Source of the DNA: Hyphomicrobiaceae bacterium
GTDB taxonomy: Bacteria; Pseudomonadota; Alphaproteobacteria; Rhizobiales; Hyphomicrobiaceae
DNA length: 64,000 nt
Reading direction: 5' to 3'
Assembly (NCBI GenBank): GCA_040080145.1
Contig: JBEBJA010000069.1
Location: 1,620 to 65,619 of the forward strand
This document shows, one piece after another, positions 21,939 through 41,333 of the stretch (positions are counted from its first letter, which is position 1; each line of letters opens with the position of its first letter). A program made the translations under genes and the position numbers. Below the pieces are notes generated by a model, which saw nothing but the letters and a program-made list of their open reading frames with translations, ran no database searches and was not told where the DNA came from.

Positions 21939-21946
21939 GGGCGCTC

Positions 21947-23194: not shown

Positions 23195-23207
23195 GAATTA
23201 AGATCCG

Positions 23208-24529: not shown

Positions 24530-24531
24530 CA

Positions 24532-26514
24532 CTAACCTAAGCCCATCTGGATATAACCGCTCGGACAGACGTCGGCGCAGATGTGGCAGCCGATGCACTT
24601 CGTATAATCCGTGTCGACATAGCGGCCGACGGCACGATCCTTTTTGGGCACACGAAACACCGCCGTCTGCGGGCAGAAGACGACGCAGTTATCGCATTCA
24701 AAGCACATGCCGCAGCTCATGCAGCGCTTGCCTTCAACGATGGCCTGCGCCTCCGTCAAACCCATGATGCGTTCATCGAAGTTGCCCAGCACCTGGTCGG
24801 CTTCGATGTGAACCTCAGAGCGCTTTCCGCGCGGCTCGTACTTGAAGTGCCCCTTAAAGAGTTTGCCATGCGGAATGATCTGCGTGGACGAGCGATCTTC
24901 GTAATTGTGAACGGCGAATTTTGCGCTGTCAGTCCCACGCGGCTGATCGTGCCCATATGGTGCGGGATTCAGCGAACGTTGATTGAGTTCCTTAAGCAGA
25001 TTGAAGTGGTGAACATCAACCTTCGGGCGCTTGTCCTGGGGACTTCCCGCCAGCATATGATCGATGCTTTCAGCGGCAATCCGGCCATGGCCGATTGCCG
25101 TCGTCAGCAGGTGCGGCCGGATAATATCGCCACCGGCGAAATGCTTCTCTTTGCCCTTGACCCGATACATCGAGTCGGCTGCGATAAAGCCCTTGCCGCC
25201 ATCCAAAGGATTGATACCTTCGAAATCGCCCATCTGCCCGATTGCAGAAATCACGATATCGCATGGAATTTCGAACTCGCTTCCAGGGACTGGAACGGGT
25301 GTCGTTCCCTTCATCGTGCACTTGCACATCTTCAGGGCCCGGGCTTGGCCCTGGTCGTCTTTCAAAACCTCAAGCGGCATAACGCTGCCGATGATGGTTA
25401 CCCCCTCGCGCGCAGCATCCGCCCGCTCGCGCTCTGAGGCCGTCATCTTTTCGATGGCAAACAGCGATGTCAGCGTGGCTTGCATCCCCTCGCGGCGCAT
25501 CGTGCCCGCCACATCGTGAGCGGTGTAGCCCAGCAGGTTATGGGGATCGGCGTCCTTCTCGGCCTTATGCGTGATGTGACCCAGGCGGCGCGCCACGGAC
25601 GCCACGTCGATAGACGTATCGCCACCGCCGACGACCACCACGCGCTTGGCCGTGCCGACAACCCAACCCTTATTGAAGGCGTCGAGAAACTCGACTCCGG
25701 TGATGCAGTTCTCGGTACCCTCCCAGCCGGGGACCGGCAAGCCCCGGCCCTTCTGCGCGCCGATTGCCCAAAAGATCGCGTCGAAGTTGCTTTCGAGTTC
25801 CTCGATGGAAACATGAACCCCGACGCGGGTGTTTGTACGCACCTCGACACCCATGGCGATGATGCGCCCGATTTCCTTGTCGAGCATGTCGCGCGGTGTC
25901 CGGTAGCCGGGAATTCCGTACCGCATCATTCCGCCGAGCTTCTCGTGCTCCTCAAAGATCGCAACGCCGTGCCCCTTGCGCCGCAAGAAGTAGGCTGCGG
26001 CCAAGCCAGCAGGTCCGCCACCGATGACCGCAACTGTCCGGCCCGAAAATTTCGCCTCGACCGGTAGTTTCACATTGTTTTCGTTGGCCCAATCGCCGAC
26101 ATACTGCTCGACCGCATTGATGCCGACGAAGTCATCAACCTCGTTGCGATTACAGCCATCCTCGCACGGCGCTGGGCAGACCCGCCCCATCGTCGCCGGA
26201 AATGGGTTGGCTTCGACCATGCGCTGGAACGCATATTCCTGCCACTTCGTATCCTTCGACGGTGCCTTGTCCATGCCGCGCGCAATTGCGAGCCATCCAC
26301 GGATCTCATGCCCCGACGGACAGCTGCCCTGGCATGGCGGCGTCTGATGGATATAGGTCGGACATTTATGCGTCTTGTCTGCCTGGAAGATCTTATCGGT
26401 AAGATCGTCCCACCCCTTCCACATATTCTCGCCGTCTTGGTACCGGCGGAACGTCGGCTTGGTCTTATCTGCGGCCTGTGCGCCACTCACCGGTTTGGTC
26501 TTGCTGTCGCTCAT
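24532..26514 (-). CDS. dsrL: DsrL, NAD(P)H:acceptor oxidoreductase (GltD-like with C-terminal ferredoxin domain)
   Basis: Contains VAVIGGGPAGLAAAYFL and two C-terminal CxxCxxCxxxC clusters. Position between dsrK and dsrJ. Confidence 0.9.
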   Translation of the reverse strand: MSDSKTKPVSGAQAADKTKPTFRRYQDGENMWKGWDDLTDKIFQADKTHKCPTYIHQTPPCQGSCPSGHEIRGWLAIARGMDKAPSKDTKWQEYAFQRMVEANPFPATMGRVCPAPCEDGCNRNEVDDFVGINAVEQYVGDWANENNVKLPVEAKFSGRTVAVIGGGPAGLAAAYFLRRKGHGVAIFEEHEKLGGMMRYGIPGYRTPRDMLDKEIGRIIAMGVEVRTNTRVGVHVSIEELESNFDAIFWAIGAQKGRGLPVPGWEGTENCITGVEFLDAFNKGWVVGTAKRVVVVGGGDTSIDVASVARRLGHITHKAEKDADPHNLLGYTAHDVAGTMRREGMQATLTSLFAIEKMTASERERADAAREGVTIIGSVMPLEVLKDDQGQARALKMCKCTMKGTTPVPVPGSEFEIPCDIVISAIGQMGDFEGINPLDGGKGFIAADSMYRVKGKEKHFAGGDIIRPHLLTTAIGHGRIAAESIDHMLAGSPQDKRPKVDVHHFNLLKELNQRSLNPAPYGHDQPRGTDSAKFAVHNYEDRSSTQIIPHGKLFKGHFKYEPRGKRSEVHIEADQVLGNFDERIMGLTEAQAIVEGKRCMSCGMCFECDNCVVFCPQTAVFRVPKKDRAVGRYVDTDYTKCIGCHICADVCPSGYIQMGLG

Positions 26515-28088
26515 TTTCGATCTCCATGCGGTGTGGCGGTAGTCGCGATTGCGTCTGCCTTTTCATCGAGCGCCCGAGCTTGGATCGAACCATCGAGAAC
26601 TATGGCGTTTGAAACCATTTGATGGACGCTCAGGATCGCATCCATTTTGAAGCCGTATGCAGGCAAGACCTTGGTGAACTGGGCCTTGCAAATGGCGCAA
26701 ATGGCGGCGAGGTGCGTCACGCCATGATCTCTGGCCACCTGCTGCATTGCGCGCATGCGCGGCTGCGCGCCCTTTAAGCGAAGATCCATCAAATCGTCGG
26801 TGAGAAGCCCACCGCCCCCGCCGCAACAGAATGTCGATTCTTTGATGGTATCGGGTGCCATATCGTAGAAGTGATTGCAGCTTGCCCGCAGAATTGCGCG
26901 GGGATACTCGAACTGCCCGCCAGGCTTGTCGCCCATCCGGCTTGCACGGGCGACATTGCAACTGTCGTGGAACGTGAGGCGGTATTTGTCGTTTCGCGAC
27001 TTATCGAACCGCAACTCACCCTTCTCGATCATGTCGTTAGTGAATTCGACGATGTGTTGCGGGATCGGGTAGCGTTGATCGAGGAAGTCGAATGGTCCAG
27101 CCAGCGTATTGAGATAGTTATAGGCGACCCGCCAGGCATGACCGCACTCGCCGAATACGATCCGCTTTACGCCGAGTTCCAGCGCTGCCTTGCGAATGCG
27201 CAGGGATACCTCCTGCATGTTCTCATAGGAGCCGATGAACAGGCCGAAATTCGCAGCCTCTGACGCATAGGAACTCAGTGTCCACGTGACACCCGCCTGA
27301 TGGAAAACTTTGGCGTAGCCCATCAGTCCGAGAATGTGGGGCTCAGCAAACAAATCCGCCGAGGGCGTGACCAGCATGATGTCAGCGCCAACCATATCCA
27401 GCGGCATCAGGATATCGAGCCCGGTCTCCTCTTTCATTTCCTCCTCGAGTCCATCAAGGGTCGAGCGGATTGCCTTCTTGGGGAGACCGAGATTGTTTCC
27501 AGTCTTGTAGACTTTGCCGATAATCTCGTTTGAATACTTCTGGCCCATCCCGATATGGTCCATGATCTCGCGCGCCGCCATCGACACTTCGGCGGTGTCA
27601 ATACCGATCGGGCAATATACGGAACAGCGACGGCATTGCGAACACTGGTGAAAATAGGTGTACCAATCGTCGAGAACTTCCTTGGTCAAGTCTTCCGCCC
27701 CGACCAGCCAAGGCATGTATTTGCCCGCGAACGTGAAGTAGCGCCGGTAGACCTTGCGCATGAGGTCCTGCCGCCCGACCGGCATATTCTTCGGATCGCC
27801 GGTGCCGAGGAAATAGTGGCACTTGTCGGTGCATGCTCCGCACTTGATGCAGGAATCCATATAGACTTGCAGCGACCGGTATTTGGTCAACAAGTCGCCC
27901 ATCTTGTCGATGGCTTTTTCCTGCCAATTCTCCACGAGCTCGCCAGGGTAGCCAAGCGGTGCCTGATGATCGCCTTTGGCGACGAAGGGTCGGCTCTTGG
28001 CCATAGCGCCGCACGCCAACGCAGGAATTGCGCTTGGATCTGGAATGTCATCGCCGTCGGCGATGATGTAGTCGCTCACTTTCGCCAT
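26511..28088 (-). CDS. dsrK: DsrK, HdrD-like catalytic Fe-S subunit
   Basis: Contains CIKCGACTDKCH and CSQCRRCSVYCP, plus CCG-domain motifs (FCCGGGGG). GAAGGAGG lies upstream of the ATG at 28088. Confidence 0.9.
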   Translation of the reverse strand: MAKVSDYIIADGDDIPDPSAIPALACGAMAKSRPFVAKGDHQAPLGYPGELVENWQEKAIDKMGDLLTKYRSLQVYMDSCIKCGACTDKCHYFLGTGDPKNMPVGRQDLMRKVYRRYFTFAGKYMPWLVGAEDLTKEVLDDWYTYFHQCSQCRRCSVYCPIGIDTAEVSMAAREIMDHIGMGQKYSNEIIGKVYKTGNNLGLPKKAIRSTLDGLEEEMKEETGLDILMPLDMVGADIMLVTPSADLFAEPHILGLMGYAKVFHQAGVTWTLSSYASEAANFGLFIGSYENMQEVSLRIRKAALELGVKRIVFGECGHAWRVAYNYLNTLAGPFDFLDQRYPIPQHIVEFTNDMIEKGELRFDKSRNDKYRLTFHDSCNVARASRMGDKPGGQFEYPRAILRASCNHFYDMAPDTIKESTFCCGGGGGLLTDDLMDLRLKGAQPRMRAMQQVARDHGVTHLAAICAICKAQFTKVLPAYGFKMDAILSVHQMVSNAIVLDGSIQARALDEKADAIATTATPHGDRK

Positions 28089-28122
28089 GCGCGACCTCCT
28101 TCTGCGATATTCTCGGACCCGC

Positions 28123-28875
28123 TCATTTGCGATCAGGCTCCATGGCAAGTTTCGCGGCCCCCAGTTTCGCGGCCCAAGGCGCGATATGGCGCTTTTCGCG
28201 AGGGTTATCGACTTGGTTGCGCGAGGGGCTGAAGAACAGCCCAGGTCCGTGCATCAGCTTGGAGAATGGGAAGATAATCATCAGCAGCGCCACCAGTGCT
28301 AAGTGCACAAGCAGCACCGGATCAGACGGGAGAGGCTTCAACTCGAAGTGCATCAGGCCTTGAAAGAATGCTTTCAATCCAACGATGTCGGTGTGCGCGA
28401 CGAACTTCATCAATAGTCCGCTGCAGCCGATCCCCAAGATCAGCGCAAGCATGAGATGGTCGGACGGCGCACTGATGTAGCGGATACGCGGCACGACGAT
28501 GCGCCGGGCCCACAGTCCAGCGAGTCCAGCAACCATTGCAAAGCCGGCATAAACACCGAATGGCTGCACCACGGTGACCCAGCCCCAGACCGGCTGCGTG
28601 AAATATCGCAAGTGACGCAACAGCACGAGCAAAAGTGCGGCGTGAAACACCCACCCAAACAGCCATATCCATTTGTTGGCCTTAAACAGGCTCTCGAATA
28701 GGACTGTCTCGCGCGCGAGACGGAAGGCGACCCCGCTCCGTGTTACCGGAGCGGGAGTTGTCGGAATTTTAAGCGGTGCGGGGCTTGCGGAAAACTGCCA
28801 AATCTTGCGGGCGAACCCGCCGACAAGAATAGCGGTCGCAACACTAAACAATGCAGCAAAAATTCCTGTCAGCAC
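28123..28875 (-). CDS. dsrM: DsrM, NarI-like diheme cytochrome b
   Basis: 250 aa with 5 transmembrane helices and conserved His residues. Position upstream of dsrK. Confidence 0.85.
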   Translation of the reverse strand: MLTGIFAALFSVATAILVGGFARKIWQFSASPAPLKIPTTPAPVTRSGVAFRLARETVLFESLFKANKWIWLFGWVFHAALLLVLLRHLRYFTQPVWGWVTVVQPFGVYAGFAMVAGLAGLWARRIVVPRIRYISAPSDHLMLALILGIGCSGLLMKFVAHTDIVGLKAFFQGLMHFELKPLPSDPVLLVHLALVALLMIIFPFSKLMHGPGLFFSPSRNQVDNPREKRHIAPWAAKLGAAKLAMEPDRK

Positions 28876-28926
28876 CAGCCTTCCTCCCCTCCGTCGCGTC
28901 GCACTTGCCTCAGTGTTCGTTGATGA

Positions 28927-29259
28927 TCAGACGCAGCCGGTTGGCTTGGGCAATCCAGCGATCTTGCAAGCCTGTTTGGCCGGGCCGTAAGGGAACAGCG
29001 TATAGAGATATTCGTTGCTGCTTTTGTCGGGCCCCATCGTCTTGGCGAGCGCTTTTGTGAGCACGCGGATCGCAGGAGCGACCTGATATTCTTCGTAGTA
29101 CGACCGCAAGAAGTTCACCACTTCCCAGCGTTCGTCATTCATTTCGAGATCTTCGCTCTGAGCGATTTGGAGCGCGAGTTCCGAATTCCATTGGCTGAGG
29201 TCGGTCAGATAGCCTTCCTCGTCGGCTTCGATTTCGCTTCCGTTGTATTGGTAGCCCAT
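28927..29259 (-). CDS. dsrC: DsrC, sulfur-carrier / heterodisulfide protein
   Basis: The C-terminus AKQACKIAGLPKPTGCV carries both conserved Cys. Start at the ATG at 29259, preceded by GAAGGGAA. Confidence 0.95.
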   Translation of the reverse strand: MGYQYNGSEIEADEEGYLTDLSQWNSELALQIAQSEDLEMNDERWEVVNFLRSYYEEYQVAPAIRVLTKALAKTMGPDKSSNEYLYTLFPYGPAKQACKIAGLPKPTGCV

Positions 29260-29303
29260 CAGATGTTCCCTTCTGTTTGATTGCGTCCGGCCGGCTAGAA
29301 TTT

Positions 29304-29366
29304 CAAAGCCAAACCTGATCGGTTTAAAGCCAAACCTGATCGTCTCAAAGCCAAGCCTGATTGGTT
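29304..29366. repeat. three tandem 21-nt direct repeats (CAAAGCCAAACCTGATCGGTT type) spanning the dsrH stop and the dsrH-dsrC spacer
   Basis: Units at 29304-29324, 29325-29345 and 29346-29366, with 2-4 mismatches. The third unit encodes the dsrH C-terminus. Confidence 0.9.
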
Positions 29367-29647
29367 TTATGCTGCGCGACGAGATCGACAAAACCGCCAT
29401 AGTCGACGATGCCAATGCCATCAATCAGGCGATCTTTCGTCAACCCGCGGGCAGCGAAATCCGGCCCGAGTACGTAGAATTGCACGTCTACCCGGCGCGC
29501 CCAGATGTCGCCTGATACGATGGTGCCCTTGATGGCACCCACCACTGCATCTTCGATCAAAAGGACGGCATCGCCTTTGGTGACGTGTTGCAGGCAGCTC
29601 TGCAGCGCGTTGGTCTGAAACGGAGATTTGTTTACGGTGTGCAGCAT
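29345..29647 (-). CDS. dsrH: DsrH (TusB-like)
   Basis: 100 aa. MLHTVNKSPF...LQSCLQ...DAVLLIEDAV pattern. Position after dsrF. Confidence 0.85.
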   Translation of the reverse strand: MLHTVNKSPFQTNALQSCLQHVTKGDAVLLIEDAVVGAIKGTIVSGDIWARRVDVQFYVLGPDFAARGLTKDRLIDGIGIVDYGGFVDLVAQHKTNQAWL

Positions 29648-29685
29648 TGATGTGTTTGGGCTCCTTCGCCCGTGTCGTATGTGGA

Positions 29686-30126
29686 TCAGAAGCTCAAAAT
29701 CACGTCCTGCTCGGCCATGACTTTGGCGAGTTCGGCGCGGGTGACGGGAATAAGTGAGGGCTTAACGGCGTAGCCGTCGTTTTCATCCTCAAACGTAATC
29801 GCCTGCAGGTCCGCAAGCGTGAGGCCGCGAGCATTCAGCGACTCTTTCTCGACATAAAGCTTTGTCACGCCATAGTCGCCTAGCGCTCGATAAGTATTGG
29901 CGAAACTTTTCATGCCGATACCTTTGGTGTCCTGCCCCTTGAAAAGCTGGAACACCCCATCGTCAAGGAATGCGAGACTGACGTGCTGATCGAATGCCGC
30001 CCCGATCAAAACAACTTCGAGGGCTTCCAGTGCGTAAATCGTACCGTAAGGCGCCTTCCGATTGACGTAGAGAAACTTCTTTGGCTTTAGAGGCACCGGG
30101 GCGGGCTTTGCTGCTTGCGTTGTCAT
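29686..30126 (-). CDS. dsrF: DsrF (TusC-like)
   Basis: DsrE/F fold pattern KKFLYVNRKAPYGTIYALEALEVVL. The ATG at 30126 is preceded by GAGGGA. Confidence 0.85.
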   Translation of the reverse strand: MTTQAAKPAPVPLKPKKFLYVNRKAPYGTIYALEALEVVLIGAAFDQHVSLAFLDDGVFQLFKGQDTKGIGMKSFANTYRALGDYGVTKLYVEKESLNARGLTLADLQAITFEDENDGYAVKPSLIPVTRAELAKVMAEQDVILSF

Positions 30127-30137
30127 ATGGATTTCCC

Positions 30138-30536
30138 TCAATCGCCGAATACGACAAGACGGTCGGCTTCAATTCCCATCTCGATGAGCTGGCCAAGGCC
30201 AGAGATGCGGAATCCGGGCGCGAGGTTTGCGGCGCCGTCGCCCTTCTTATGCCGCTTGGCTTCCCCATCATCGAGAATGCCGCGGCGTTGCGCTGCGGCG
30301 ATGCACACCACGAGATCCAACTTGTGAGCCTCGGCAAGATCGCTCCAGTTCTTCTGGATGTTGCGGTCATCCTGCGGGGGAACGGTCAATCGCGTGCCGT
30401 TGTTGACGCCGTCGTGATAGAAGAACACGCGATAAACCTCGTGCCCTTTTTCGAGTACGGCCTTTGTAAATTGATAAGCCGTATCGGACGCTTGATGGGT
30501 ATACGGCCCCTCATTGACCAAAATAGCGAACTTCAT
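30138..30536 (-). CDS. dsrE: DsrE (TusD-like), active-site Cys present
   Basis: MKFAILVNEGPYTHQ...LVVCIAAAQRRG. Start at the ATG at 30536. Confidence 0.9.
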   Translation of the reverse strand: MKFAILVNEGPYTHQASDTAYQFTKAVLEKGHEVYRVFFYHDGVNNGTRLTVPPQDDRNIQKNWSDLAEAHKLDLVVCIAAAQRRGILDDGEAKRHKKGDGAANLAPGFRISGLGQLIEMGIEADRLVVFGD

Positions 30537-30594
30537 ACTTAAACCCCGACTGATGACTGCGGTCACCCGCTCAGCGCGAGCCCTCCGATCCCGT

Positions 30595-30618
30595 GAGCAA
30601 GGCATCGCTGCCTTGCTC
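30595..30618 (-). other. intercistronic 10-bp GC-rich stem with GCGA (GNRA) tetraloop between dsrB and dsrE
   Basis: GAGCAAGGCA-TCGC-TGCCTTGCTC on the plus strand. No U-tract follows on the transcript strand. Confidence 0.5.
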
Positions 30619-30669
30619 TCATTCAGGACGAACGGCCCGCAGTTTTACGCTTGGCAAATGGAGCAAACC

Positions 30670-31785
30670 CTAGAAACGGACATGCGCCGACATGTTCATG
30701 GTGTGGCGGGCACCGACCCATGTATCGAGATGGTGCTTGGTGAAGGCGAGACCCGTTTTCTCGAAGAAGCGCGGCCAGCCGATCCGGTCGATCCACTCGC
30801 CCATGCGCTCCCAGTGCTTCGCGTCCTCTTTGTAGGCGTAGAGGATCTTGCGCACGATATCTTCCACCTCGGGCCAGCGCGGCGGATTGTTGGGCAGGTT
30901 GGCAACCACCAGCTTGTGGAACGTCGGCTTCGAGCGGGCATTCGAATGCTTGCCGCCAACCCAGATGGCCAGTTTCGTCGATTCAGCGCTGTTGATCTGC
31001 ATCGGTGGACATGGCGGATAACAGGCACCGCAGCACACGCACTTTTTCTCATCGACTTCCAGCGACGGCTTGCCGTTGACCATAGCAGGGCGGATAGCCG
31101 CCACTGGACAACGCGCGACCACCGAGGGTCGCTCGCAAACATTGCCCACCCGGTCATGGTCGATCTTGGGAGGCTTCGTGTACTGGACGTTGATGGAGAT
31201 GTCGCCTTGGCCGCCGCAATTGATCTGACAGCACGACGTCGTGATGCGGACGCGCGTCGGCATGTCTTCCTGAATGAATTCCTTGTGCAACATATCCATC
31301 AGGCTTTTGACCACGCCCGAGGCGTCGGTGCCTGGGATATCGCAATGCAACCATCCTTGAGTATGCGAAATCATCGACACCGAGTTACCAGTTCCGCCAA
31401 CCGGGAACCCTTCTTCGGTCAGCGCCTTGATAAGTGCGGGAACCTTGTCAAAGGCTGCGACCATGAATTCGATGTTGGAGCGCGTGGTAAATCGCACATG
31501 CCCTTCGCCGTGTTTGTCGGCTATGTCGCAAAGCTTGCGGATCGTATAGACGTCCATCTGCCGCTGCGTGCCGGCGCGAACCGTAAAGATTTCATCGCCG
31601 CTCTTGGCGACATGGCGCAGCACGCCTGGACGCGGCCGCTCATGCCAAGCCCAGTTCCCGTAGTTCTTACGCATGATCGGGTGCATGTACTGCAGCGGAT
31701 CAGGAACGCCGGATTCAATTGGCTTGCGCGGCTTGGGAGGTGCGGCTGGTTTTGCAGGCGTAAGGCTCGCGGTGGTTTCAGTCAT
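30670..31785 (-). CDS. dsrB: DsrB, sulfite reductase beta subunit (reverse-acting type by context)
   Basis: Full-length DsrB-like sequence with ferredoxin-insert Cys clusters (CVCCGACYPPCP). Confidence 0.95.
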   Translation of the reverse strand: MTETTASLTPAKPAAPPKPRKPIESGVPDPLQYMHPIMRKNYGNWAWHERPRPGVLRHVAKSGDEIFTVRAGTQRQMDVYTIRKLCDIADKHGEGHVRFTTRSNIEFMVAAFDKVPALIKALTEEGFPVGGTGNSVSMISHTQGWLHCDIPGTDASGVVKSLMDMLHKEFIQEDMPTRVRITTSCCQINCGGQGDISINVQYTKPPKIDHDRVGNVCERPSVVARCPVAAIRPAMVNGKPSLEVDEKKCVCCGACYPPCPPMQINSAESTKLAIWVGGKHSNARSKPTFHKLVVANLPNNPPRWPEVEDIVRKILYAYKEDAKHWERMGEWIDRIGWPRFFEKTGLAFTKHHLDTWVGARHTMNMSAHVRF

Positions 31786-31918
31786 GTGGCACTACTCGCT
31801 CTTTGATCCAAAAGCTGGTCGCCGCAACGCAGCTTCCTTGCCCGAAACTTTGCTATTGTGAGAAAGATACCGGCCCGCTGGCACCAACACCGCGAACCGG
31901 TATCGTCTCCCCCCGGAA

Positions 31919-33271
31919 CTACTCGGCAGCATCCTTTGCGCCGCCGTCTTTGCGCAACCCGCGGCGGGCAAAGTATTTCTCTGCCTCTTCTGTGAAGTCG
32001 TCCGTGCGGACATAGCTCGACGTGCGGGGGTGCTTGACCATGTTCGGGTCGGGCTCGATACCGAGCGCATCAAGGAAGGCCGGCAACCCGATACGATCCA
32101 GCGTCTCGCCGACACGTTCGTGCTCAAGTGCGTTGTCGGCAAAGAAGTCGATCACCTGACGGGCAAACGCTTTCAATTTTGCATAGTCGGCATCCGTCTC
32201 AAGCTTCATGAACGGCACAATCATTGTGCCCATGAGATCGCCCACCTTGAGCGACCGCTTGCCACCGATGAGGATCGACGCACCCTTGTCGTCTCCTGGT
32301 GCCAACGCTTTATGCATGACGTTGATACAATGCATGCAACGCACGCAGCTCTTGTTGTCGACATCCAGCGTATCGTCGTCGTTGAGACTGAGCGCGCGTG
32401 TCGGGCACATGGCGATCACGTGGTCAATCGTATACTTGCGGCCCTGCTTGGCGACGTATGCTTTAACTTCCTGCTGATCGACTTTCATGTCGTCGCGCCA
32501 CGTTCCGATCACGGCAAAGTCGGCGCGATGGATGGCGTTGACGCAGTCGTTGGGACAGCCAGAGAACTTGAATTTGAACTTGTAGGGCAATGCAGGCCGG
32601 TGAATTTCGCCGACGTTATCGTTGAGGATCGTGCGCAAAGCGCGCGCCTCGTCATAGTTCGACATTTCGCAGCGGGCATGTCCAACGCAGCTCATGCTGG
32701 TGCGCAGAGCAGGGCCAGCCCCGCCAAGGTCGAAGCCGATCTCGTTCAGTTCATCAAAGGCTTTCTGGCATCCAGCAGTCGTGGTGCCCTGCAGCATGAT
32801 ATCGCCCGACTGGCCGTGCAACGCGATCAGGCCCGAACCATGACGCTCCCAGATGTCGCAAATATTGCGCAAAACCTCGGTGTTGTAGTGAAAGCCAGGA
32901 GGCGGCATCACGCGAAGAGTGTGGAACTCCTTGGAAGCTGGAAACTTGTCGGCAACTTCGGAAAAACGCGGAATGATTCCGCCGCCATAGCCAAACACCG
33001 AAACGGTGCCGCCCTTCCAGAATCCAAGCCGCTCGGTGTAGGAGTGCTCGAGCTGACCAAGCAAATCGTTCATCATCGGCGCGTATTGTTTGTCGTCGCT
33101 GTCGCGAAGCCGCTTCAGCCCGGTAACGAAGCTCGGCCATGGACCACCCTCAAGCTGGTCAAGTCGCGGAGTCGCATGCTTGTTAGCGGAGGCACATCCG
33201 CAACCTGAGCCACAACCACCCTCCTTGCCGCCGTCTTTCCCTGCATCCTCGGTCTTGGACTTATCTGCCAT
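31919..33271 (-). CDS. dsrA: DsrA, sulfite reductase alpha subunit, with a Cys/Gly-rich N-terminal extension
   Basis: KHATPRLDQLEGGPWPSFVTG and siroheme/Fe-S Cys motifs. No alternative in-frame ATG/GTG/TTG lies between the ATG at 33271 and the conserved KHATP region. Confidence 0.95.
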   Translation of the reverse strand: MADKSKTEDAGKDGGKEGGCGSGCGCASANKHATPRLDQLEGGPWPSFVTGLKRLRDSDDKQYAPMMNDLLGQLEHSYTERLGFWKGGTVSVFGYGGGIIPRFSEVADKFPASKEFHTLRVMPPPGFHYNTEVLRNICDIWERHGSGLIALHGQSGDIMLQGTTTAGCQKAFDELNEIGFDLGGAGPALRTSMSCVGHARCEMSNYDEARALRTILNDNVGEIHRPALPYKFKFKFSGCPNDCVNAIHRADFAVIGTWRDDMKVDQQEVKAYVAKQGRKYTIDHVIAMCPTRALSLNDDDTLDVDNKSCVRCMHCINVMHKALAPGDDKGASILIGGKRSLKVGDLMGTMIVPFMKLETDADYAKLKAFARQVIDFFADNALEHERVGETLDRIGLPAFLDALGIEPDPNMVKHPRTSSYVRTDDFTEEAEKYFARRGLRKDGGAKDAAE

Positions 33272-33567: not shown

Positions 33568-34530
33568 TTGAAACGGCGCGACGAAAATAGTGCTCTAAGG
33601 AACGGTGGTCCAAGAGGTGGCGGGCCGGTATCCCCGTTCGAACTTGGCAACGATGATTATTATCGTCAGTGGCGCGAGAAAAAGCTATCGGCATTTCCAA
33701 GGTCGGTAGCCGAATTGAAGGTTACCCTCGCCGATCTTGGTCAGCCTTCCGTTGCTGAACGTCAACGCATTATAGATGCCATCAAGCGCGCCAACATGGC
33801 GATCTATGTCAGTCAACCGCCTGCAAACGACGCCGATGGCCGCAAGCTTCGGCAAGACCTTACGGCCTTTTTGGCTGGCTTCGGACTGGCGAGCGTTGAA
33901 AAACACCGCTCAGCCGAGAGCGATGGGTTCGTTGCCATTGAGGTTTCGCAAACACCAGTCAAACGTGGGTTCATTCCTTATACGTCAAAGCCGCTGAGCT
34001 GGCACACCGACGGTTACTACAACCCACCGCAGGCCGCTATCCGGGCCATGTTGCTCCATTGCGCTCACGCGGCCACGTCAGGCGGCGAGAATGCGCTTCT
34101 TGATCCAGAGATTGCCTACATCCGGCTTCGCGACGCCAACCCGAAATGGGTGGAGGCACTGATGCGGCCTGACGCGATGACGATCCCGGTATCCATTGAG
34201 GAAGACGGCAGCGAGCGTCCGGTCAGCACCGGCCCCGTATTCGCGGTGGATGCTTCAGACGGCAGTCTGCTCATGCGCTACACCGCGCGGGGCCGCAATA
34301 TCCACTGGCGGGACGACGAGGATACGCGCGCTGCAACGGCCTTCCTGGAACGGGTGTTGAAAGACGAACAGGAGCCACTCGTCCTGCGGGCGCAGTTGGA
34401 ACCAGGAGAAGGATTGATCTGCAATAACGTGTTGCACACCAGAACAGCATTCGAAGATACCGGAACACCCCGCCGCCTTATCCTGCGTGCGCGGTTTGCC
34501 ACAAGAATTGCAACCCACGAACCCGAGTGA
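33568..34530 (+). CDS. TauD/TfdA-family Fe(II)/2-oxoglutarate dioxygenase-like protein
   Basis: HxD in LSWHTDGYY, distal His in NNVLHTRTAF, Arg in RRLILRARF. TTG start is uncertain. Confidence 0.7.
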   Translation: MKRRDENSALRNGGPRGGGPVSPFELGNDDYYRQWREKKLSAFPRSVAELKVTLADLGQPSVAERQRIIDAIKRANMAIYVSQPPANDADGRKLRQDLTAFLAGFGLASVEKHRSAESDGFVAIEVSQTPVKRGFIPYTSKPLSWHTDGYYNPPQAAIRAMLLHCAHAATSGGENALLDPEIAYIRLRDANPKWVEALMRPDAMTIPVSIEEDGSERPVSTGPVFAVDASDGSLLMRYTARGRNIHWRDDEDTRAATAFLERVLKDEQEPLVLRAQLEPGEGLICNNVLHTRTAFEDTGTPRRLILRARFATRIATHEPE

Positions 34531-34534
34531 GCCC

Positions 34535-34774
34535 ATGTCACAACGAGTTGAGCCTGTGCACGGCATGGTTGCCGTTAGCGACCTCATCATCAAGCATCCC
34601 GAGGTGGCGACGTTCGACGAGCTGCTCGTCATCGTCGCAATGGCGGCCAAGGACGGTGCCCGCTTTCTGAATTACGACATCAAGCCCGATTACCGCGATA
34701 CGCCAAAGCGCTGGGAAATGCTGCTTGAGAACGCGTTCAACCTTGGTCCGCGCTACCTTGGAGAGAGGCAGTGA
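34535..34774 (+). CDS. hypothetical small protein (79 aa)
   Basis: Starts 5 nt after the dioxygenase stop. Codon third positions look gene-like. No family recognised. Confidence 0.5.
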   Translation: MSQRVEPVHGMVAVSDLIIKHPEVATFDELLVIVAMAAKDGARFLNYDIKPDYRDTPKRWEMLLENAFNLGPRYLGERQ

Positions 34775-35022
34775 GCGACCCCGTCGTCACCGATATCGAG
34801 CGTATCGAAGCGCCGTTCCGGCGTCAGTTAGTGCTTCAAGACGTTGCTCACGAAAGCGGGCTGAAGATGCTGCGTATCCGCATCCGTGAAGGCACCCGCT
34901 TTACGATCCTTGACGTCGATGCACCGGTCGCGCGCCAATGGGGTGAGCTGATGCTCGCGTGGGCGCAAACGAACGAACAAACGAACCCGCAAGCCACCAT
35001 CATACCCAAGGACGTTCCATGA
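34771..35022 (+). CDS. hypothetical small protein (83 aa)
   Basis: GTGA overlap with the preceding ORF suggests translational coupling. No family recognised. Confidence 0.5.
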   Translation: MSDPVVTDIERIEAPFRRQLVLQDVAHESGLKMLRIRIREGTRFTILDVDAPVARQWGELMLAWAQTNEQTNPQATIIPKDVP

Positions 35023-35101
35023 CCGGCACCCTTGCGGCTTTGTGTTCAGCCAGTGCTCCAAGTGCGAGGCCAGCGCATGCCGGTTATGGGACCAGGATGT
35101 G

Positions 35102-36550
35102 ATGGAGCAGCTTCCGATCAGCCTCAACCTCAAAGGCAAAAAGGTCGTCGTGACCGGTGGCGGTTCGGTCGCGGCCCGAAAGTGCGAGGCGGCCCTCCGC
35201 GCCGGTGGTAACGTATTGGTCGTGACGCCGCGTTTAGGACCCGAGTTCCATGCGCTGGCGTTGCATCGAGACTTCCGCCACCGGGCGGGTCGTCCCGAGA
35301 GCCACGATTTCGACGATGCCGTCTTGGTGTTTGGGGCCAGTGAGAATGAAATAGAGGATAATCGCGTCCACGAATTGGCTAAGTCCAGGCGCGCGCTGGT
35401 CAACATCCCAGACCGGCCCGAACTTTGCGATTTCTCCATGCCTTCAATTCTCGACCGCTCGCCGTTGTTGATTGCCATCTCATCGGCTGGTTACTCACCC
35501 TTGCTGACACGGTTGATAAAACAGCGCCTTGAAAGCACCATTCCAGCCGCCTTCGGCAATCTTGCCAGGTTCTTCGGGGGCCTTCGCGAACATGTTGTTG
35601 CCCACATCCCTGATAATCGTAAGCGCCGTTATTTCCTTGAAAAAATGCTCGATGGTCCCGTCGCTGATCTGGTGCTTGCTGGCGATGAACCACGGGCGAA
35701 GGCGCTGCTCGACAGCGAACTTGCAGCTCTCGATACCCCTGAGCAAGGACCCGGATTGGGCGAAGTCTATCTCGTCGGTGGCGGTCCAGGCGACCCCGAT
35801 CTGCTGACGTTTCGCGCCCTGCGCCTCCTGCAGCGCGCTGATGTCGTGGTCTATGATCGCCTGATCGGTAGCCCCATCCTCGAACTGGTGCGCCGCGATG
35901 CCGTCCGCATTTATGTCGGCAAGATGAAGGACAAGCATGAGCTCTCCCAGGTCGAGATCAGCAAGCTGCTTGTGAAACTCGCGCGTGAAGGCAAGCGCGT
36001 GTTGCGCCTGAAGGGTGGAGATCCTTTCATATTCGGTCGCGGCGGCGAGGAAATCGAAATGCTGGCCGGCGAGGGAATCCCGTTTCAAGTGGTGCCTGGA
36101 ATTACGGCGGCCTCGGGATGCTCCAGTTATGCAGGCATTCCACTCACCCACCGCGATCATGCCCAGTCGTGTCTTTTCGTCACCGGTCACTCCAAAGATG
36201 GCCAGCTCATGCTCGATTGGAAGGCCGTGCTACAGCCCCGGCAGACGGTGGCAATTTATATGGGATTGGCGATGATGCCCGGCCTCGTGCGGGATTTTCT
36301 AGCGCATGGGGCCGATCCCGACCTGCCGGTCGCCGTCGTTGATAACGGGACTCGGCCCAACCAGACGGTCATTTCGGGAACCATCGCGTCGATTGCGCAA
36401 AAAGTCGCCGAGGCCGGCATCAAGGGACCGGCCATGATTCTGATCGGTTCGGTTGTGCGGCTTCGCGAAAAGCTCGCATGGTTCAAACCGGAAACGGGAA
36501 CGCCCTCGACAACGGCTGGCATAGCCCAGTCCGTGGCGCGGATAGATTAA
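35102..36550 (+). CDS. cysG: siroheme synthase (precorrin-2 dehydrogenase/ferrochelatase + uroporphyrinogen-III C-methyltransferase)
   Basis: N-terminal Rossmann KKVVVTGGGSVAARK. SUMT domain VYLVGGGPGDPDLLTFRALRLLQRADVVVYD. Start at the ATG at 35102. Confidence 0.9.
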   Translation: MEQLPISLNLKGKKVVVTGGGSVAARKCEAALRAGGNVLVVTPRLGPEFHALALHRDFRHRAGRPESHDFDDAVLVFGASENEIEDNRVHELAKSRRALVNIPDRPELCDFSMPSILDRSPLLIAISSAGYSPLLTRLIKQRLESTIPAAFGNLARFFGGLREHVVAHIPDNRKRRYFLEKMLDGPVADLVLAGDEPRAKALLDSELAALDTPEQGPGLGEVYLVGGGPGDPDLLTFRALRLLQRADVVVYDRLIGSPILELVRRDAVRIYVGKMKDKHELSQVEISKLLVKLAREGKRVLRLKGGDPFIFGRGGEEIEMLAGEGIPFQVVPGITAASGCSSYAGIPLTHRDHAQSCLFVTGHSKDGQLMLDWKAVLQPRQTVAIYMGLAMMPGLVRDFLAHGADPDLPVAVVDNGTRPNQTVISGTIASIAQKVAEAGIKGPAMILIGSVVRLREKLAWFKPETGTPSTTAGIAQSVARID

Positions 36551-36572: not shown

Positions 36573-36911
36573 ATGTCACTTGAATTGAATGGACAGACGA
36601 TCGAAACAACGGCCAGCGGCTATATGGTCAACCTTGAGGATTGGAACGAGGAGTTGGCCCACGCGATCGCCGCGTTGGACGACATTACGCTCACGGAAGG
36701 GCACTGGGACGTCATCAACTACCTGCGCGATCAGTACATCAACAACAATCAGGTGCAGCCCAACACGCGCACCATCGTCAAAGCCATGAGCGAAAAATGG
36801 GGACGCGAAATCGACTCCAAGGATTTGTATGATCTCTTCCCAACTGACCCGTCAAAACAGGGCGGACGCATCGCCGGGTTACCCGAAAGCCGCCGCAAGG
36901 GTGGCTACTGA
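36573..36911 (+). CDS. DsrC/TusE-family protein lacking both conserved cysteines
   Basis: Aligns along its full length with the DsrC at 28927-29259. Its C-terminus is QGGRIAGLPESRRKGGY, versus QACKIAGLPKPTGCV in DsrC. GAAGGAAGGAAA RBS. Confidence 0.85.
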   Translation: MSLELNGQTIETTASGYMVNLEDWNEELAHAIAALDDITLTEGHWDVINYLRDQYINNNQVQPNTRTIVKAMSEKWGREIDSKDLYDLFPTDPSKQGGRIAGLPESRRKGGY

Positions 36912-36934
36912 CAACGCTGACCAAGGAGGCGCTC

Positions 36935-37273
36935 ATGGTTCCGCGCGAATTCATCTGCGACGCTTGTGGGTTGCCTCCGCACGCCGTTGAGGACGCGGCT
37001 TTGGCCGGCCAGGAGCGGTCTGCCGGTCAAGAACTTCCTGCTAAGTGGGTACGTCGCACCTTCGGACGCCGGAAGTTTATTCTCTGCGACTGTTGCGGCA
37101 GCACCCACCATTTCAAGGGTGGTCTATCGACGTATCTGCAGGAGACACTTGGGCTGGGTCCGTACGCAGTATGTGACTTCGCCGCCGATGCAGCGCCAGG
37201 CAGCGGTCTGCATCGCTTGAGGATCAAACAGCCAGACCCAACTGACGACCCACCAGAGGGAGCAGGTTCGTGA
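36935..37273 (+). CDS. hypothetical 4-Cys (zinc-ribbon-like) small protein, paralog A
   Basis: AAGGAGG RBS. CDAC ... LCDCCG...F.GGLS.YL motif shared with the next ORF. Confidence 0.6.
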   Translation: MVPREFICDACGLPPHAVEDAALAGQERSAGQELPAKWVRRTFGRRKFILCDCCGSTHHFKGGLSTYLQETLGLGPYAVCDFAADAAPGSGLHRLRIKQPDPTDDPPEGAGS

Positions 37274-37584
37274 AAGTTTCGTGCGACAGTTGCCAGACGG
37301 AATGCGATGTCACGGTCAGTGGACCAACGCTGCTCAGGCGAGCGCTCCCCAGGGGCTGGCGTCCGCGCCGCATTGATGGCCGGGTCTATGTTCTTTGCGA
37401 TATTTGTGGAAACTTACGACAGTTCGTTGGCGGGCTTTCGCCCTATCTCGCCGCACGGCTCAACCTTCCATCCAATGTCGAAATAGAATTTCCCGAATAC
37501 ACCGAGCTTCCAGACGCTTGGCTTGCGCGGGGAAAAATAGCGAAAGCAAATCCGGCTGCCACGAAGCTCGAGTCGGGCGAGTAA
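37270..37584 (+). CDS. hypothetical 4-Cys (zinc-ribbon-like) small protein, paralog B
   Basis: GTG start overlaps the upstream stop, with a GAGGGAG RBS. CDSC ... LCDICG...F.GGLS.YL. Confidence 0.55.
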   Translation: MKVSCDSCQTECDVTVSGPTLLRRALPRGWRPRRIDGRVYVLCDICGNLRQFVGGLSPYLAARLNLPSNVEIEFPEYTELPDAWLARGKIAKANPAATKLESGE

Positions 37585-37634: not shown

Positions 37635-39092
37635 ATGTCCCAGTCGATATCCTTAAGCCGGCTTGCGCGTCTGGTTGGGTTGCCAAGATCGACGCTGCAG
37701 CGGATGGCTCAAGCAGGTGAGTTCGCAACTTTCGATGGTCACGTAGAACTCGCGGAGGTAATGCGTGCCTTTCCTGGCGCACGGTTCGACAACGACAGTG
37801 AGATCCGCCGCGTCGAAGAAATCAAGAATGATGCGCTCAACAAGTCTGCGGAAAGACCAGAGTTGCCCGATGCCGCCGTGCTGATGGGACGCCTGCAGCA
37901 GATGGGGCGAGACTATGCCGGCCTCGCGGCACGGGTAAGGCATTATGCGCTGGTCCACCGGTGGCTCGTCGAAAAAGTCAAAGATTTGACAGCGGACGGC
38001 AAAATCGAGCCGGTGGTTGGCGATGGGCTGCTGCGCTGGTTCAAGCATGAACTCGAAGCAACGCCGCGCGAGGATGCGCGCTGGCAGCAACTTGTTACAC
38101 AGGAGCGCCTCATGCGCGTGATGTCTGCCCAGGTGACGGTCTTGCCGCGCGGGACGACTTTCGAGGCCCAGGGAAATGAAACGCTGCTTGATGCCGGTCT
38201 TCGCGCAGGATTATCGTTCGCCTACGGCTGTAGCAACGGCAACTGCGGCGACTGCAAGGCGCGGGTGATCGAAGGCGAGGTACTCAAGGTCCGCCCCCAC
38301 GATTTTGCGCTGAACGAGGCACAGAAGGCCAAGGGAATCACCCTGATGTGCTCGTATGCAGCCGTGGGCGACGTCGTTCTCGAAGCCGCGATGGCTGGAA
38401 CCCGCGATATTCCCCAGCAAACCATCATGGCCCGCGTCCGGGCAATCGAACCGCTCGGTAAGCACGTAACCGCCGTGCATCTGCTGACGCCGCGCAGTGA
38501 TCGTCTGCAGTTTTTGGCCGGCCAGCGATTGCGTGTAACGATTGGTGGTCAAGCTGCCGAGGTTTCGATTGCAAGCTGCCCGTGTGAGGAGCGCCGCATC
38601 GAGGTGCATGTGCGCGAAACAGACACCTGGTCGCCGTTTGCGAGTGCAGGCCTAAAACAAAATGACGAGGTCGAAATCGTAGGGCCATTCGGCGAATTCG
38701 TGCTGAACGAGGCGTCGGCGCGCCCGTTGGTTCTGATTGCGCAAGGCGAGGGGTACGCGCCCATCAAGAGCCTCGTGCAACATGCCCTGTCGCTCGATCT
38801 CGCACCCAACATTGCGCTCTATTGGCTCGCGGACGCCGGCGGGCATTACCAGGAAAACTTGCCGCGATCCTATGCTGCAGCATTGGACAACTTCGACTAT
38901 ATCCCGTTGACCATCAACGGCGATCACAAGGCAGCCCTGGCAGCAATTCTCGCCCGGCCGGACCTCGTATCGAGCGACGTCTATGCGGCCGGTGATGCCG
39001 CGTTCATCGAAACCATGCGGTCCGCATGGTTGACTGCCGGACTATCGCGGGACAACCTGCGCGTCGAGGCGTTCGGCAGCATCCCGGACTGA
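37635..39092 (+). CDS. fusion protein: N-terminal HTH (MerR/excisionase-like) + plant-type [2Fe-2S] ferredoxin domain + FNR-like domain with degenerate cofactor motifs
   Basis: HTH: ISLSRLARLVGLPRSTLQRMAQAGE. [2Fe-2S]: CSNGNCGDC...LMC. FNR-like: GQRLRV...VSIAS...GPFGEF...LIAQGEGYAPI. GGGAGGGGGGAGG lies upstream of the ATG at 37635. Confidence 0.7.
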   Translation: MSQSISLSRLARLVGLPRSTLQRMAQAGEFATFDGHVELAEVMRAFPGARFDNDSEIRRVEEIKNDALNKSAERPELPDAAVLMGRLQQMGRDYAGLAARVRHYALVHRWLVEKVKDLTADGKIEPVVGDGLLRWFKHELEATPREDARWQQLVTQERLMRVMSAQVTVLPRGTTFEAQGNETLLDAGLRAGLSFAYGCSNGNCGDCKARVIEGEVLKVRPHDFALNEAQKAKGITLMCSYAAVGDVVLEAAMAGTRDIPQQTIMARVRAIEPLGKHVTAVHLLTPRSDRLQFLAGQRLRVTIGGQAAEVSIASCPCEERRIEVHVRETDTWSPFASAGLKQNDEVEIVGPFGEFVLNEASARPLVLIAQGEGYAPIKSLVQHALSLDLAPNIALYWLADAGGHYQENLPRSYAAALDNFDYIPLTINGDHKAALAAILARPDLVSSDVYAAGDAAFIETMRSAWLTAGLSRDNLRVEAFGSIPD

Positions 39093-39128: not shown

Positions 39129-39530
39129 TCAGTTTTTCGAACCACGCTTCATAACGTCGGGGCAGAAGTAGGTCTGCAAAATCGCGACAATGTCGGCAAC
39201 GGGCGTGTTGGCCAACGAATAGTGCACGAAGTTGCCCCGCCGGTCAGCCTTCACAAGGCCACCTTGACGCAACCTGATGAGGTGTTGCGAAACGAGGCTT
39301 TGGCGAGCATCGATCGCTTCGCAGATCTCCGTCACCGATTTGGCACCGTCCATCAAGAAGCAGAGAATCATCAGCCGGTGTCCGCTGCCCATTGTGCGCA
39401 GGAACTCCGCAGCTACCTCTGCCGAATCCTTTGTTGCTGCCAATGCGTTCACATCAATCTGAGTCGATGACGCTACCGGCTTTGAGGAATCGCGCCGCTT
39501 TGCGTCAAGCCGCGTCCGAGTGTTGGCCAT
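39129..39530 (-). CDS. ArsR/SmtB-family transcriptional regulator, two-Cys SqrR/BigR-like
   Basis: HRLMILCFL...SVTEICEAIDARQSLVSQHLIRLRQGGLV...YFC. The Cys residues in ILC and YFC are 66 residues apart. Start at the ATG at 39530. Confidence 0.8.
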   Translation of the reverse strand: MANTRTRLDAKRRDSSKPVASSTQIDVNALAATKDSAEVAAEFLRTMGSGHRLMILCFLMDGAKSVTEICEAIDARQSLVSQHLIRLRQGGLVKADRRGNFVHYSLANTPVADIVAILQTYFCPDVMKRGSKN

Positions 39531-39695
39531 GGTTCTCTCAATTGCATCAGGATAAACCGTTGAACGGAATACCTTCCATGCTATCGAAGATAGCTCATGC
39601 CGTACTTTGCTGCAATGCAATAAATTAGCACACCAGCTCTGCCTGCAGCGGTTAGCTCGGGTCAGATCCGGTCAGTCACTGATTTCGTAGGCGCC

Positions 39696-39728
39696 AAACC
39701 CGCAAAAGACGGTTGCTTTTGCGGGTTT
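39696..39728 (-). terminator. 13-bp stem-loop downstream of tusA
   Basis: AAACCCGCAAAAG pairs with CTTTTGCGGGTTT. Lies about 55 nt after the tusA stop. Confidence 0.5.
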
Positions 39729-39782
39729 GAATGGTCAGGGCACAGCGAACGCCGCTTCATGGGAAGGGCATGCGCAAGTGGT

Positions 39783-40010
39783 TCAGCCACCGCGTTTTAT
39801 CAAGAACCGGTACACTCCAGCATCTTCAGATTGCTCCACGAGCGTATTGCCCGTGGTCCTGCAAAACGCCTGGAAGTCAGCGACCGATCCAGGATCGGTC
39901 GCGAGAATTTCAAGTGTACCGCCGGGCGCGACTTCCGTGATAGCCTTCTTGGCCTTGAGAATAGGAATCGGGCAATTCGCGCCCTTAGCGTCGAGTGTCT
40001 TGTCAGCCAT
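39783..40010 (-). CDS. tusA: TusA/SirA-family sulfurtransferase (YeeD-like)
   Basis: 75 aa with the LDAKGANCPIPILKAKKA CPxP motif. Downstream of yeeE. Confidence 0.9.
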   Translation of the reverse strand: MADKTLDAKGANCPIPILKAKKAITEVAPGGTLEILATDPGSVADFQAFCRTTGNTLVEQSEDAGVYRFLIKRGG

Positions 40011-40208
40011 TGTTTATCTCCCCGTGTGCGTTGATCACTATTTCATTTTGGGTCGGCACGTCTATGGTCCTCTCCGTGATCGGAGTCTGTCGGCACCTCC
40101 CTCATATTGACGTTTGCAAACAGACGAAGGTGGCCCGTCAAGGCCGGTGAACAGCGTAATCCGATCATGCCCCGAGCGGGCGGACACGCCGGCGTCAGAC
40201 TTCGTTCG

Positions 40209-41333
40209 TCAGACTTCGTTCATTAGGATCGTTTCCATCTTCTTCATGCCCAGCACACCGCCGGCAACAATCGCAGCAAATGTCAGGAACGAACCAATCG
40301 CCAAAGTAGAAACGCCGGTAACAGCTTGGCCGATTGTGCATCCAAGCGCCATCACGCCACCAATGCCCATGAGGGCTGCACCAAACAGAACGCGCTTGGT
40401 ATCGGCCACATTGGAGAACGTCGTGAACTTGAAGCGCCCCATTGACTTCGCGGCGATGAAAGCACCCAAAATAGCGCCAAACACGGACGCGACTCCGAAT
40501 CCTGGAACCATCGTTGCTGTAAATCGCTGCAGCCATTCAAGAGAGTCTGCTGTTGGCCGCACGTACGTCAGGGAGATTGGCGTCATCGGCTTGCCGCCCA
40601 TTTCATCATAGGCCAACCCGGTGAGCACCCAGCCCGCAATCGCACATAACGCGATACCGCCGCCCGCGAGGATGTGGATAGGCGAGTTTCGAAAGTTTGC
40701 ATCTTTAAAACAATAGATTGCGGCTGCTCCCGCAATCAAAACGGTTATGACCAGATTGCCCGTGTCTGGTCCGAGTTTCGTGACCACGCCCACGAGTTCG
40801 CCGATGCTCTGAGTTGAAACTTTCAGGCTACTCAGGTTAACGCTCGTCACTTGGTCAAACCAATTGCGCAGCGGTCCGATGATGCCGCCGATGGCCATGT
40901 AGGCGAACAGTCCCATAACGATGAGCGTTACCAAAGATCGAAGATCGCCCGCGCCGACGCGGGTTAGATTTCGACTGGCGCAGCCGCCCGCGAAAACCAT
41001 CCCAAACCCAAAGATCAGACCGCCGACGATGTTGCCAAACCAGTTTAATGTGGGGCTCAGATACATGGATTTTGCAAGCGGAACCACGCCTGCCCAGTTC
41101 AGCAGCTGAGCGCCCACGAGCGTTAGCGCGGCCGCCAGTATCCACGAACGAAAGCGGCGATAGTCTCCGAACGACATGATGTCGGAGATCGACCCCATAG
41201 TGCAGAAATTGGTCCGGAACACGATGTATCCGAATAGTGTCCCGATAATCAATCCGCCAACCGCAAGCCAAACATCTGGATTGCTTTGTATCAAATCCCT
41301 CAGTGCACCCATGTCACCCTCCAGCCTTACCAC
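40209..41333 (-). CDS. yeeE: full-length YeeE/YedE-family transporter (thiosulfate/sulfur-compound uptake type)
   Basis: 374 aa with about 9 transmembrane helices. Three Cys-containing motifs (FCTMGS, GGCASRNL, LGCTIGQ). Followed by a tusA-like gene. Confidence 0.85.
   Translation of the reverse strand: MVRLEGDMGALRDLIQSNPDVWLAVGGLIIGTLFGYIVFRTNFCTMGSISDIMSFGDYRRFRSWILAAALTLVGAQLLNWAGVVPLAKSMYLSPTLNWFGNIVGGLIFGFGMVFAGGCASRNLTRVGAGDLRSLVTLIVMGLFAYMAIGGIIGPLRNWFDQVTSVNLSSLKVSTQSIGELVGVVTKLGPDTGNLVITVLIAGAAAIYCFKDANFRNSPIHILAGGGIALCAIAGWVLTGLAYDEMGGKPMTPISLTYVRPTADSLEWLQRFTATMVPGFGVASVFGAILGAFIAAKSMGRFKFTTFSNVADTKRVLFGAALMGIGGVMALGCTIGQAVTGVSTLAIGSFLTFAAIVAGGVLGMKKMETILMNEV

Follow-up and report, generated by a model that had tools for sequence, protein, structure and literature searches.

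Cys-less paralogues of DsrC/TusE, the RspA type, are common in sulfur-metabolising genomes. The RspA class was reportedly proposed to be regulatory by Venceslau and colleagues in 2014, and to our knowledge no function has been assigned to any RspA-type DsrC paralogue. DsrD, a small dsr-encoded protein, is a winged-helix protein of sulfite reducers and has no metal site. The Cys-less DsrC-like proteins discussed below correspond to the RspA class named in PMC8477390, and they are encoded beside two genes, here called A and B, for four-Cys mini-proteins. A small-protein family that adjoins, and in some lineages is fused to, an RspA-type DsrC provides a concrete candidate for a binding partner and makes the function of Cys-less DsrC paralogues experimentally approachable.

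The window, the whole 64,000-nucleotide stretch of a Hyphomicrobiaceae contig that was analysed, carries a complete rDsr cluster, dsrABEF(H)CMKLJOPN plus DUF4202 as assigned with Pfam, on the minus strand (19823–33271); the operon containing A and B diverges from it. On the plus strand the order is a TauD-like gene, a small ORF, DUF6967, cysG, the Cys-less DsrC/TusE-family paralogue DsrC1, A, B and a gene for a 485-aa Fer2/FNR-like protein. The siroheme synthase gene cysG (35042–36550, Pfam) is followed after 22 nt by the RspA-like DsrC1 (36573–36911; Pfam DsrC E=1e-33, TIGR03342 102 bits), after 23 nt more by A (36935–37273), by B (37270–37584) with a 4-nt overlap, and after a further 50 nt by the 485-aa protein (37635–39092). 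The same DsrC1 gene takes the same position behind cysG in loci L017 and L128. No convincing terminator was found between cysG and the Fer2 gene, the promoter and terminator scan staying within shuffled expectation, and A and B are predicted to be co-transcribed.

Several features around this operon deserve mention in their own right. The plus-strand genes upstream of cysG (33568–35022), which encode the TauD-like dioxygenase, the small conserved ORF (~79–95 aa, no family) and DUF6967, diverge from dsrA; L017, L128 and L130 repeat all or most of the set, a recurrence that points to uncharacterised dsr-accessory genes. Convergent to the A/B genes on the minus strand (39129–41333) are genes for an ArsR-type regulator, TusA and a YeeE/YedE-type sulfur transporter, a trio that also follows the Fer2 gene in L048 and L049. 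DsrA of the window has a Gly/Cys-rich N-terminal extension (33180–33271, minus strand; …GGKEGGCGSGCGCASANKH…) ahead of its conserved body; the members of its cluster are 439–451 aa long.

Gene A encodes 112 aa from an ATG start, with a CxxC...CxCCG four-Cys domain, an F-x-GG-L-S-x-YL helix and a GLHRxR tail. Gene B encodes 104 aa from a GTG start, with a CxxC...CxxCG domain, an Arg-rich hairpin (LPRGWRPRRIDGR), a GGLSPYL helix and an acidic tail. Each is preceded on the plus strand by a Shine-Dalgarno sequence, AAGGAGG for A (36923–36929, 5 nt before the ATG) and GAGGGAG for B (37256–37262, within the 3' end of A and 7 nt before the GTG), and the GTG start is supported by B orthologues, which likewise begin MK(V/I)xC. 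The two proteins are paralogues, sharing 36% identity over 70 aa (BLASTP, E=7e-12), and a family HMM finds A and B as its sole matches among the ORFs of the 64-kb window. The first-pass annotation, made from the letters alone, had described two mutually alignable ORFs of these lengths, each with a strong Shine-Dalgarno sequence and both with an LCDxCG-x4-F-x-GGLSxYL signature. Its coordinates and ribosome-binding sites were confirmed, and the signature residues are invariant or nearly so when 35 A and B members are aligned, the invariant columns being C8, C11, P35, W38, R41, L50, C51, C54, G55, F60, G63, S65, Y67, L68 and L72 (numbered as in A).

Homologues of B fall into 47 clusters (59–88% identity) and those of A into 17 (46–62% identity, its own sequence apart); the named ones come from Hyphomicrobiaceae or other alphaproteobacterial MAGs and are labelled 'hypothetical'. 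In codon alignments of 20 orthologues each, the median pairwise dN/dS is 0.19 for A and 0.20 for B, and third codon positions are ~2–3 times more variable than first and second positions. A and B are real genes under purifying selection, whose absence would have told against the original proposal. The contrary reading, that they are chance ORFs in GC-rich DNA and no genes, could point to their omission from the GenBank annotation of the contig, yet it is refuted by the dozens of orthologues with invariant motifs, by a dN/dS of ~0.2 with variation concentrated at third positions, by the Shine-Dalgarno site on both and by a confident AlphaFold2 model of B; its probability is negligible. In the deposited annotation the flanking proteins are numbered consecutively (MEQ1695682.1 and MEQ1695683.1), and records of A and B come solely from Logan assemblies, from which it follows that the two genes went uncalled. 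Short conserved genes can escape automatic annotation, and A and B are an example.

The proposal that the pair is translationally coupled stands for the window but does not generalise. Here the last 4 nt of A, with its TGA stop, are also the first 4 of B (GTGA, 37270–37273, plus strand), whereas most orthologous pairs are separated by a spacer of 20–130 nt. An overlap recurs within the window's sub-lineage, as ATGA in L129, and in L036 the stop of A and the start of B abut without overlapping (TAGATG). Translational coupling of A and B is a lineage-specific trait of the window's sub-lineage.

The first ~65 residues of A and B are predicted to form a four-Cys metal domain of zinc-ribbon/treble-clef type, followed by the conserved F-x-GG-[LIV]-S-x-YL helix. 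An AlphaFold2 model of B built on a 61-sequence alignment reaches a mean pLDDT of 82, with residues 1–70 mostly at 85–95; in it, strands 2–4/11–13 and 31–35/38–42 flank the two Cys knuckles, and short helices span residues 49–52 and 58–63, the latter being the GGLSPYL element. A is modelled less well (pLDDT 70). Two CxxC or CxxC-like knuckles at beta-hairpins, formed by cysteines (C8, C11, C51 and C54) that are invariant in 35 sequences, are what a zinc ribbon or C4 knuckle would show. No curated family or solved structure matches significantly. The best Pfam match is Zn_ribbon_4 (E=0.18; 12 bits, cutoff 30), the best PHROG match, also not significant, is a 'lipoprotein' family (E=0.005), and scans of A and B against Pfam, NCBIfam, PHROG and PADLOC returned nothing significant, including any anti-phage defence or phage family model in PADLOC or PHROG. 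A profile search of PDB sequences gave only E>=0.25, and Foldseek comparison of both models with PDB and BFVD gave nothing below E=0.1 (E>=2.8 against PDB), its weak, non-significant matches being zinc-ribbon ribosomal proteins and TFIIE. No PF00301 match appeared in Pfam at E<=1 and no rubredoxin among the Foldseek matches, and A and B themselves do not match PF04358 or TIGR03342.

From the lack of a match in Pfam, NCBIfam, PHROG, PADLOC, PDB and Foldseek it follows that the family is undescribed in those libraries, in agreement with the earlier admission that the pair could be placed in no family; no characterised family unrelated to sulfur metabolism claims it there either. Of the two metal sites first suggested, the zinc ribbon is the one that fits, as a C4 knuckle/zinc-ribbon-type module in which zinc is the presumptive metal; the rubredoxin-like alternative finds no match in sequence or fold. 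The two paralogues differ in detail. A carries an extra invariant Cys beside a ligand Cys (CDCCG). B combines an Arg-rich hairpin with an acidic, aromatic tail, and its charge, averaged over orthologues, is +2.5 in the core and −3.6 in the tail, a contrast that the orthologues conserve.

The gene directly upstream of A had been taken for a Cys-less DsrC paralogue, and so it is: DsrC1 falls within the DsrC family, contains no Cys in the whole protein and ends GLPESRRKGGY, and it is acidic (pI 4.7). The true DsrC of the window's dsr operon retains both C-terminal Cys and ends ...KQACKIAGLPKPTGCV. DsrC1, with the DsrC-family domain and neither conserved C-terminal Cys, is of the RspA type. Both C-terminal Cys are likewise missing from the cassette's DsrC-like proteins in all 22 loci with A or B, which implies that these proteins are unable to carry sulfur as DsrC does.

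The link between the mini-proteins and Cys-less DsrC is supported more strongly than proximity could suggest, for in the window's closest relatives B is fused to it. An in-frame ORF of 226 aa encodes B, a linker and the second paralogue, RspA2, in L129 (929–1609), and the same fusion ORF is present on an independent JGI contig (L128, 8318–8998), where the gene caller annotated the DsrC half only. A second B::RspA2 variant is found in L049 (64–765) and L048, followed as in the window by Fer2, ArsR, TusA and YeeE genes; its B part is ~88% like the window's B, going by a reading of two sequences. P0078 is a third B::Cys-less-DsrC variant. Fusion that recurs in this way, in three sequence variants, is a classical sign of a joint complex, making a Cys-less DsrC the likely partner of B. 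The window itself has no RspA2, tblastn matching DsrC1 and the true DsrC only; it has apparently lost RspA2 and keeps DsrC1 directly upstream of A.

Among GTDB species representatives, 33 loci were found, all from MAGs, and 22 of these (L015–L036) contain A or B; the A–B pair is found in Hyphomicrobiaceae MAGs. The order A, B, Cys-less DsrC (RspA2), Fer2 protein is kept in 20 of the 22, with the Fer2 gene last. Genes of the dsr system lie within 10 kb in 13 of the 22, usually with DUF4202, dsrN and dsrP convergent and 3–5 kb downstream of the cassette. Two loci (L025 and L031) have at least 6 kb of downstream flank free of dsr genes, and the rest of the 22 end too early for linkage to be judged. 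The cassette also adjoins dsr genes in L128 and L130, and in other loci it sits between aprBA and dsr or cysG genes. The connection to sulfur metabolism originally drawn from a single neighbourhood is borne out by this synteny, which defines a four-gene module beside the rDsr, apr and cysG genes of widespread uncultured alphaproteobacterial sulfur oxidisers. Within it, B, at 60–88% identity to the window's copy, is better conserved than DsrN, DsrP and the Fer2 protein are (47–65%).

Departures from the usual layout occur. L017 has cysG, DsrC1, a single A-like gene and then Fer2. In L036, from one Hyphomicrobiaceae MAG, A and B have neither a DsrC-like nor a Fer2 gene near them and lie 6 kb from dsrN. 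Here (L036 / L005, ~5500–11200) a succinate dehydrogenase operon is interrupted by the pair and a CreD-like gene, so that A and B stand between sdhA/creD and sdhB. No palindromic operator is shared upstream of A across 19 loci. A GTTCGAC/GTTGGAC-N(1-2)-CGATAATG element, which could be a promoter or operator, lies upstream of the cassette in seven related loci, L019, L020, L021, L026, L027, L034 and L035, mostly 80–110 nt from A (~200 nt in L020), and is absent upstream of A in the window.

The last gene of the cassette had been read as an HTH-[2Fe-2S] protein. Its ferredoxin domain is well matched (Fer2 E=2e-12, BenC-like, with all four [2Fe-2S] cysteines kept) and is joined to an FNR-like module, but the putative N-terminal HTH is matched weakly, with a Pfam E of ~0.006 and, in a PDB profile search, the TtgV HTH at E=0.06. 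In the FNR-like module a conserved A-x-C-P-C-x-x-R-R (CPC motif) occupies the site of the FAD-binding RxYS, and the GxGxxP (NAD) motif is degenerate in most orthologues. Full-length metagenomic homologues (46–51% identity; L050–L127) are abundant next to recJ and lemA-like genes, and no mini-protein or DsrC-like gene lies beside these. A constant association of the HTH-Fer2 protein with A and B was rejected, since most of 80 metagenomic homologues lie apart from the mini-proteins. The 485-aa protein looks like a member of a widespread uncharacterised family, and since this family is widespread alone, A, B and RspA must have been added to a more general protein in a particular lineage and are not its obligate partners.

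The range of A and B is narrow, covering uncultured Hyphomicrobiaceae and relatives. An exhaustive profile search of 1.84 billion representatives returned 63 proteins at E<=0.001. Outside the A and B clades these are proteins of 68–87 aa with a C-x2-C...P-x-G-W...LC-x2-CG...F-x-GG-x-S-x-x-L pattern, P0080 for example (E=2.5e-11; BLASTP identity to B 41%), and they match nothing significantly in Pfam, NCBIfam, PHROG or PADLOC. The Arg residues of the B hairpin are not conserved in them. Three ~70-aa relatives could be assigned to contigs, each time in the company of phage or mobile-element genes: integrase, RNase T, lysozyme, holin and HNH on one, HicAB, a primase zinc ribbon, an AAA_25 helicase, HTH_17 and GpA terminase on another, and DUF3987, HTH_17 and PIN on the third. 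In L008 and L010–L014, ~70-aa relatives occur in early, replication or lysis regions of phages or mobile elements, with no consistent small partner gene. Searches by tblastn found no match to P0080 in cultured phages (INPHARED) and none to B in plasmids (PLSDB). Eleven further Hyphomicrobiales loci (L037–L047) have a single family member each in unrelated contexts, with no consistent conserved neighbour; in a rough NJ tree of 85 columns these genes group mostly with the B clade, and the L017 gene groups with the A clade.

The explanation preferred here, tentatively and with slightly less than even confidence, is that A and B serve Cys-less DsrC-type proteins as zinc-ribbon binding partners or adaptors, in a sensing or regulatory module linked to rDsr. 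In rDsr-carrying Hyphomicrobiaceae a conserved module joins the pair to the putative HTH-[2Fe-2S]-FNR-like protein and to one or two RspA-type, Cys-less paralogues of DsrC/TusE. B would bind the Cys-less DsrC-type protein as a small zinc-stabilised adaptor, as by its paralogy would A, and the resulting complex might act together with the [2Fe-2S] protein in the sensing or control of sulfur oxidation without itself carrying sulfur or electrons. The partnership of B with Cys-less DsrC is supported by the gene fusions; the regulatory output, zinc as the metal, and physical A–B and B–DsrC-like complexes are what we infer beyond it. A binding role for B fits its high conservation, its basic core and Arg-rich hairpin with an acidic tail, and the acidity of DsrC1. 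Against the adaptor reading stand the window's want of RspA2, the very partner fused to B elsewhere; the A–B pair of L036, with neither a DsrC-like nor a Fer2 gene nearby; the eleven single-copy Hyphomicrobiales loci in unrelated contexts; the distant relatives on phage or mobile-element contigs that have no DsrC gene at all; and the HTH-Fer2 family, widespread without A, B or RspA and with an HTH that is statistically unsupported. That A and B form an anti-regulator pair, one of the two roles offered by the first-pass annotation, is a possible reading.

The phage and mobile-element relatives lend some weight to a rather unlikely alternative, in which A and B are autonomous nucleic-acid-binding zinc ribbons domesticated from mobile elements, acting on DNA, RNA or the transcription machinery in a sulfur neighbourhood that is largely historical. 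The ~70-aa relatives near primase, helicase, excisionase and lysis genes, the single copies in varied chromosomal contexts, the Arg-rich hairpin and very strong conservation of B, and the weak Foldseek matches to zinc-ribbon ribosomal proteins and TFIIE would all suit it, yet the Arg residues vary in distant relatives, every Foldseek match is non-significant (E>0.1), and the order A–B–DsrC-like–Fer2 is kept over deep divergence, with B fused to the DsrC-like protein. The same mobile ancestry enters a quite improbable extension in which A and B are zinc-thiolate switches from phage or mobile-element zinc-ribbon genes that joined Cys-less DsrC in a new sensor complex, one that would report sulfane sulfur or redox state to the HTH-[2Fe-2S] transcription factor and so control rDsr sulfur oxidation; if true, it would provide the first defined partners, and a first function, for the enigmatic RspA-type DsrC proteins.

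Gene neighbourhood speaks to a different role, in the maturation of DsrAB. A and B might be accessory or chaperone factors for the insertion of siroheme/siroamide or Fe-S clusters, and the Cys-less DsrC, which they would partner in assembly, would hold the place of the substrate in the DsrAB channel. The position of the genes in the window, L017 and L128 is just downstream of cysG and on its strand, and in type I loci they adjoin a Mrp/ApbC-like gene, DUF4202 and dsrN; these neighbours are cofactor-biosynthesis genes, and a maturation role fits them about as well as a regulatory one does. As a whole the proposal is nonetheless unlikely, as A and B resemble no assembly factor so far known, the available flanks of the cassette in L031 and L025 show no dsr genes, and the single-copy and phage relatives lack such a context. 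The first-pass annotation had also offered a small metal/redox relay, and a rubredoxin-like Fe(Cys)4 carrier passing electrons between the [2Fe-2S]-FNR-like protein and a sulfur-metabolism acceptor would be its concrete form. CxxC...CxxCG does resemble the rubredoxin knuckles, and the next gene does encode a ferredoxin/FNR-type protein. That protein, however, has A-x-CPC in place of the RxYS motif for FAD, has a degenerate NAD motif in most orthologues and belongs to a family widespread without the mini-proteins, while relatives of A and B occur in phage replication or early-gene regions and rubredoxin is matched neither in Pfam (E<=1) nor by Foldseek. On these grounds the relay finds no support, and electron transfer, very doubtful, is the least supported of the three rivals (maturation, nucleic-acid binding and rubredoxin).

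The fold type of A and B is ordinary; the libraries and literature searched contain no earlier account of this family, of the way its members pair or of their association with, and fusion to, RspA-type proteins, nor does that literature describe the A and B genes themselves. Generic zinc-ribbon mini-proteins (Zn_ribbon_4 PF13717, HVO_2753-type) are alike in size, in having two CxxC knuckles on beta-hairpins and probably in a structural metal site; A and B differ from them in matching no such family significantly and in a P-x-G-W hairpin and F-x-GG-x-S-x-x-L helix specific to their own family. Rubredoxin (PF00301) shares the four Cys as CxxC...CxxCG, but A and B, which it matches in neither sequence nor fold, have ~30–40 residues between the knuckles, an insert and an extra helix, and their context does not demand an electron carrier. 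Like ZAS anti-sigma factors of the RsrA type, they are small Cys-rich, putatively zinc-binding proteins paired with a candidate regulator, and A has the extra Cys (CDCCG); they differ in the absence of HxxxCxxC from both proteins and of a sigma factor gene from the annotated neighbourhood, and no homology was detected. The DsrC/TusE/RspA family (PF04358) supplies the neighbour and fusion partner of the pair, members by Pfam and TIGR03342 that differ from the window's true DsrC in lacking both conserved C-terminal Cys. DsrD, a small allosteric activator of DsrAB (PMC8794893) with no homology to A or B, is a parallel in function only, as a small, non-catalytic, dsr-encoded protein that binds a Dsr protein, as A and B might.
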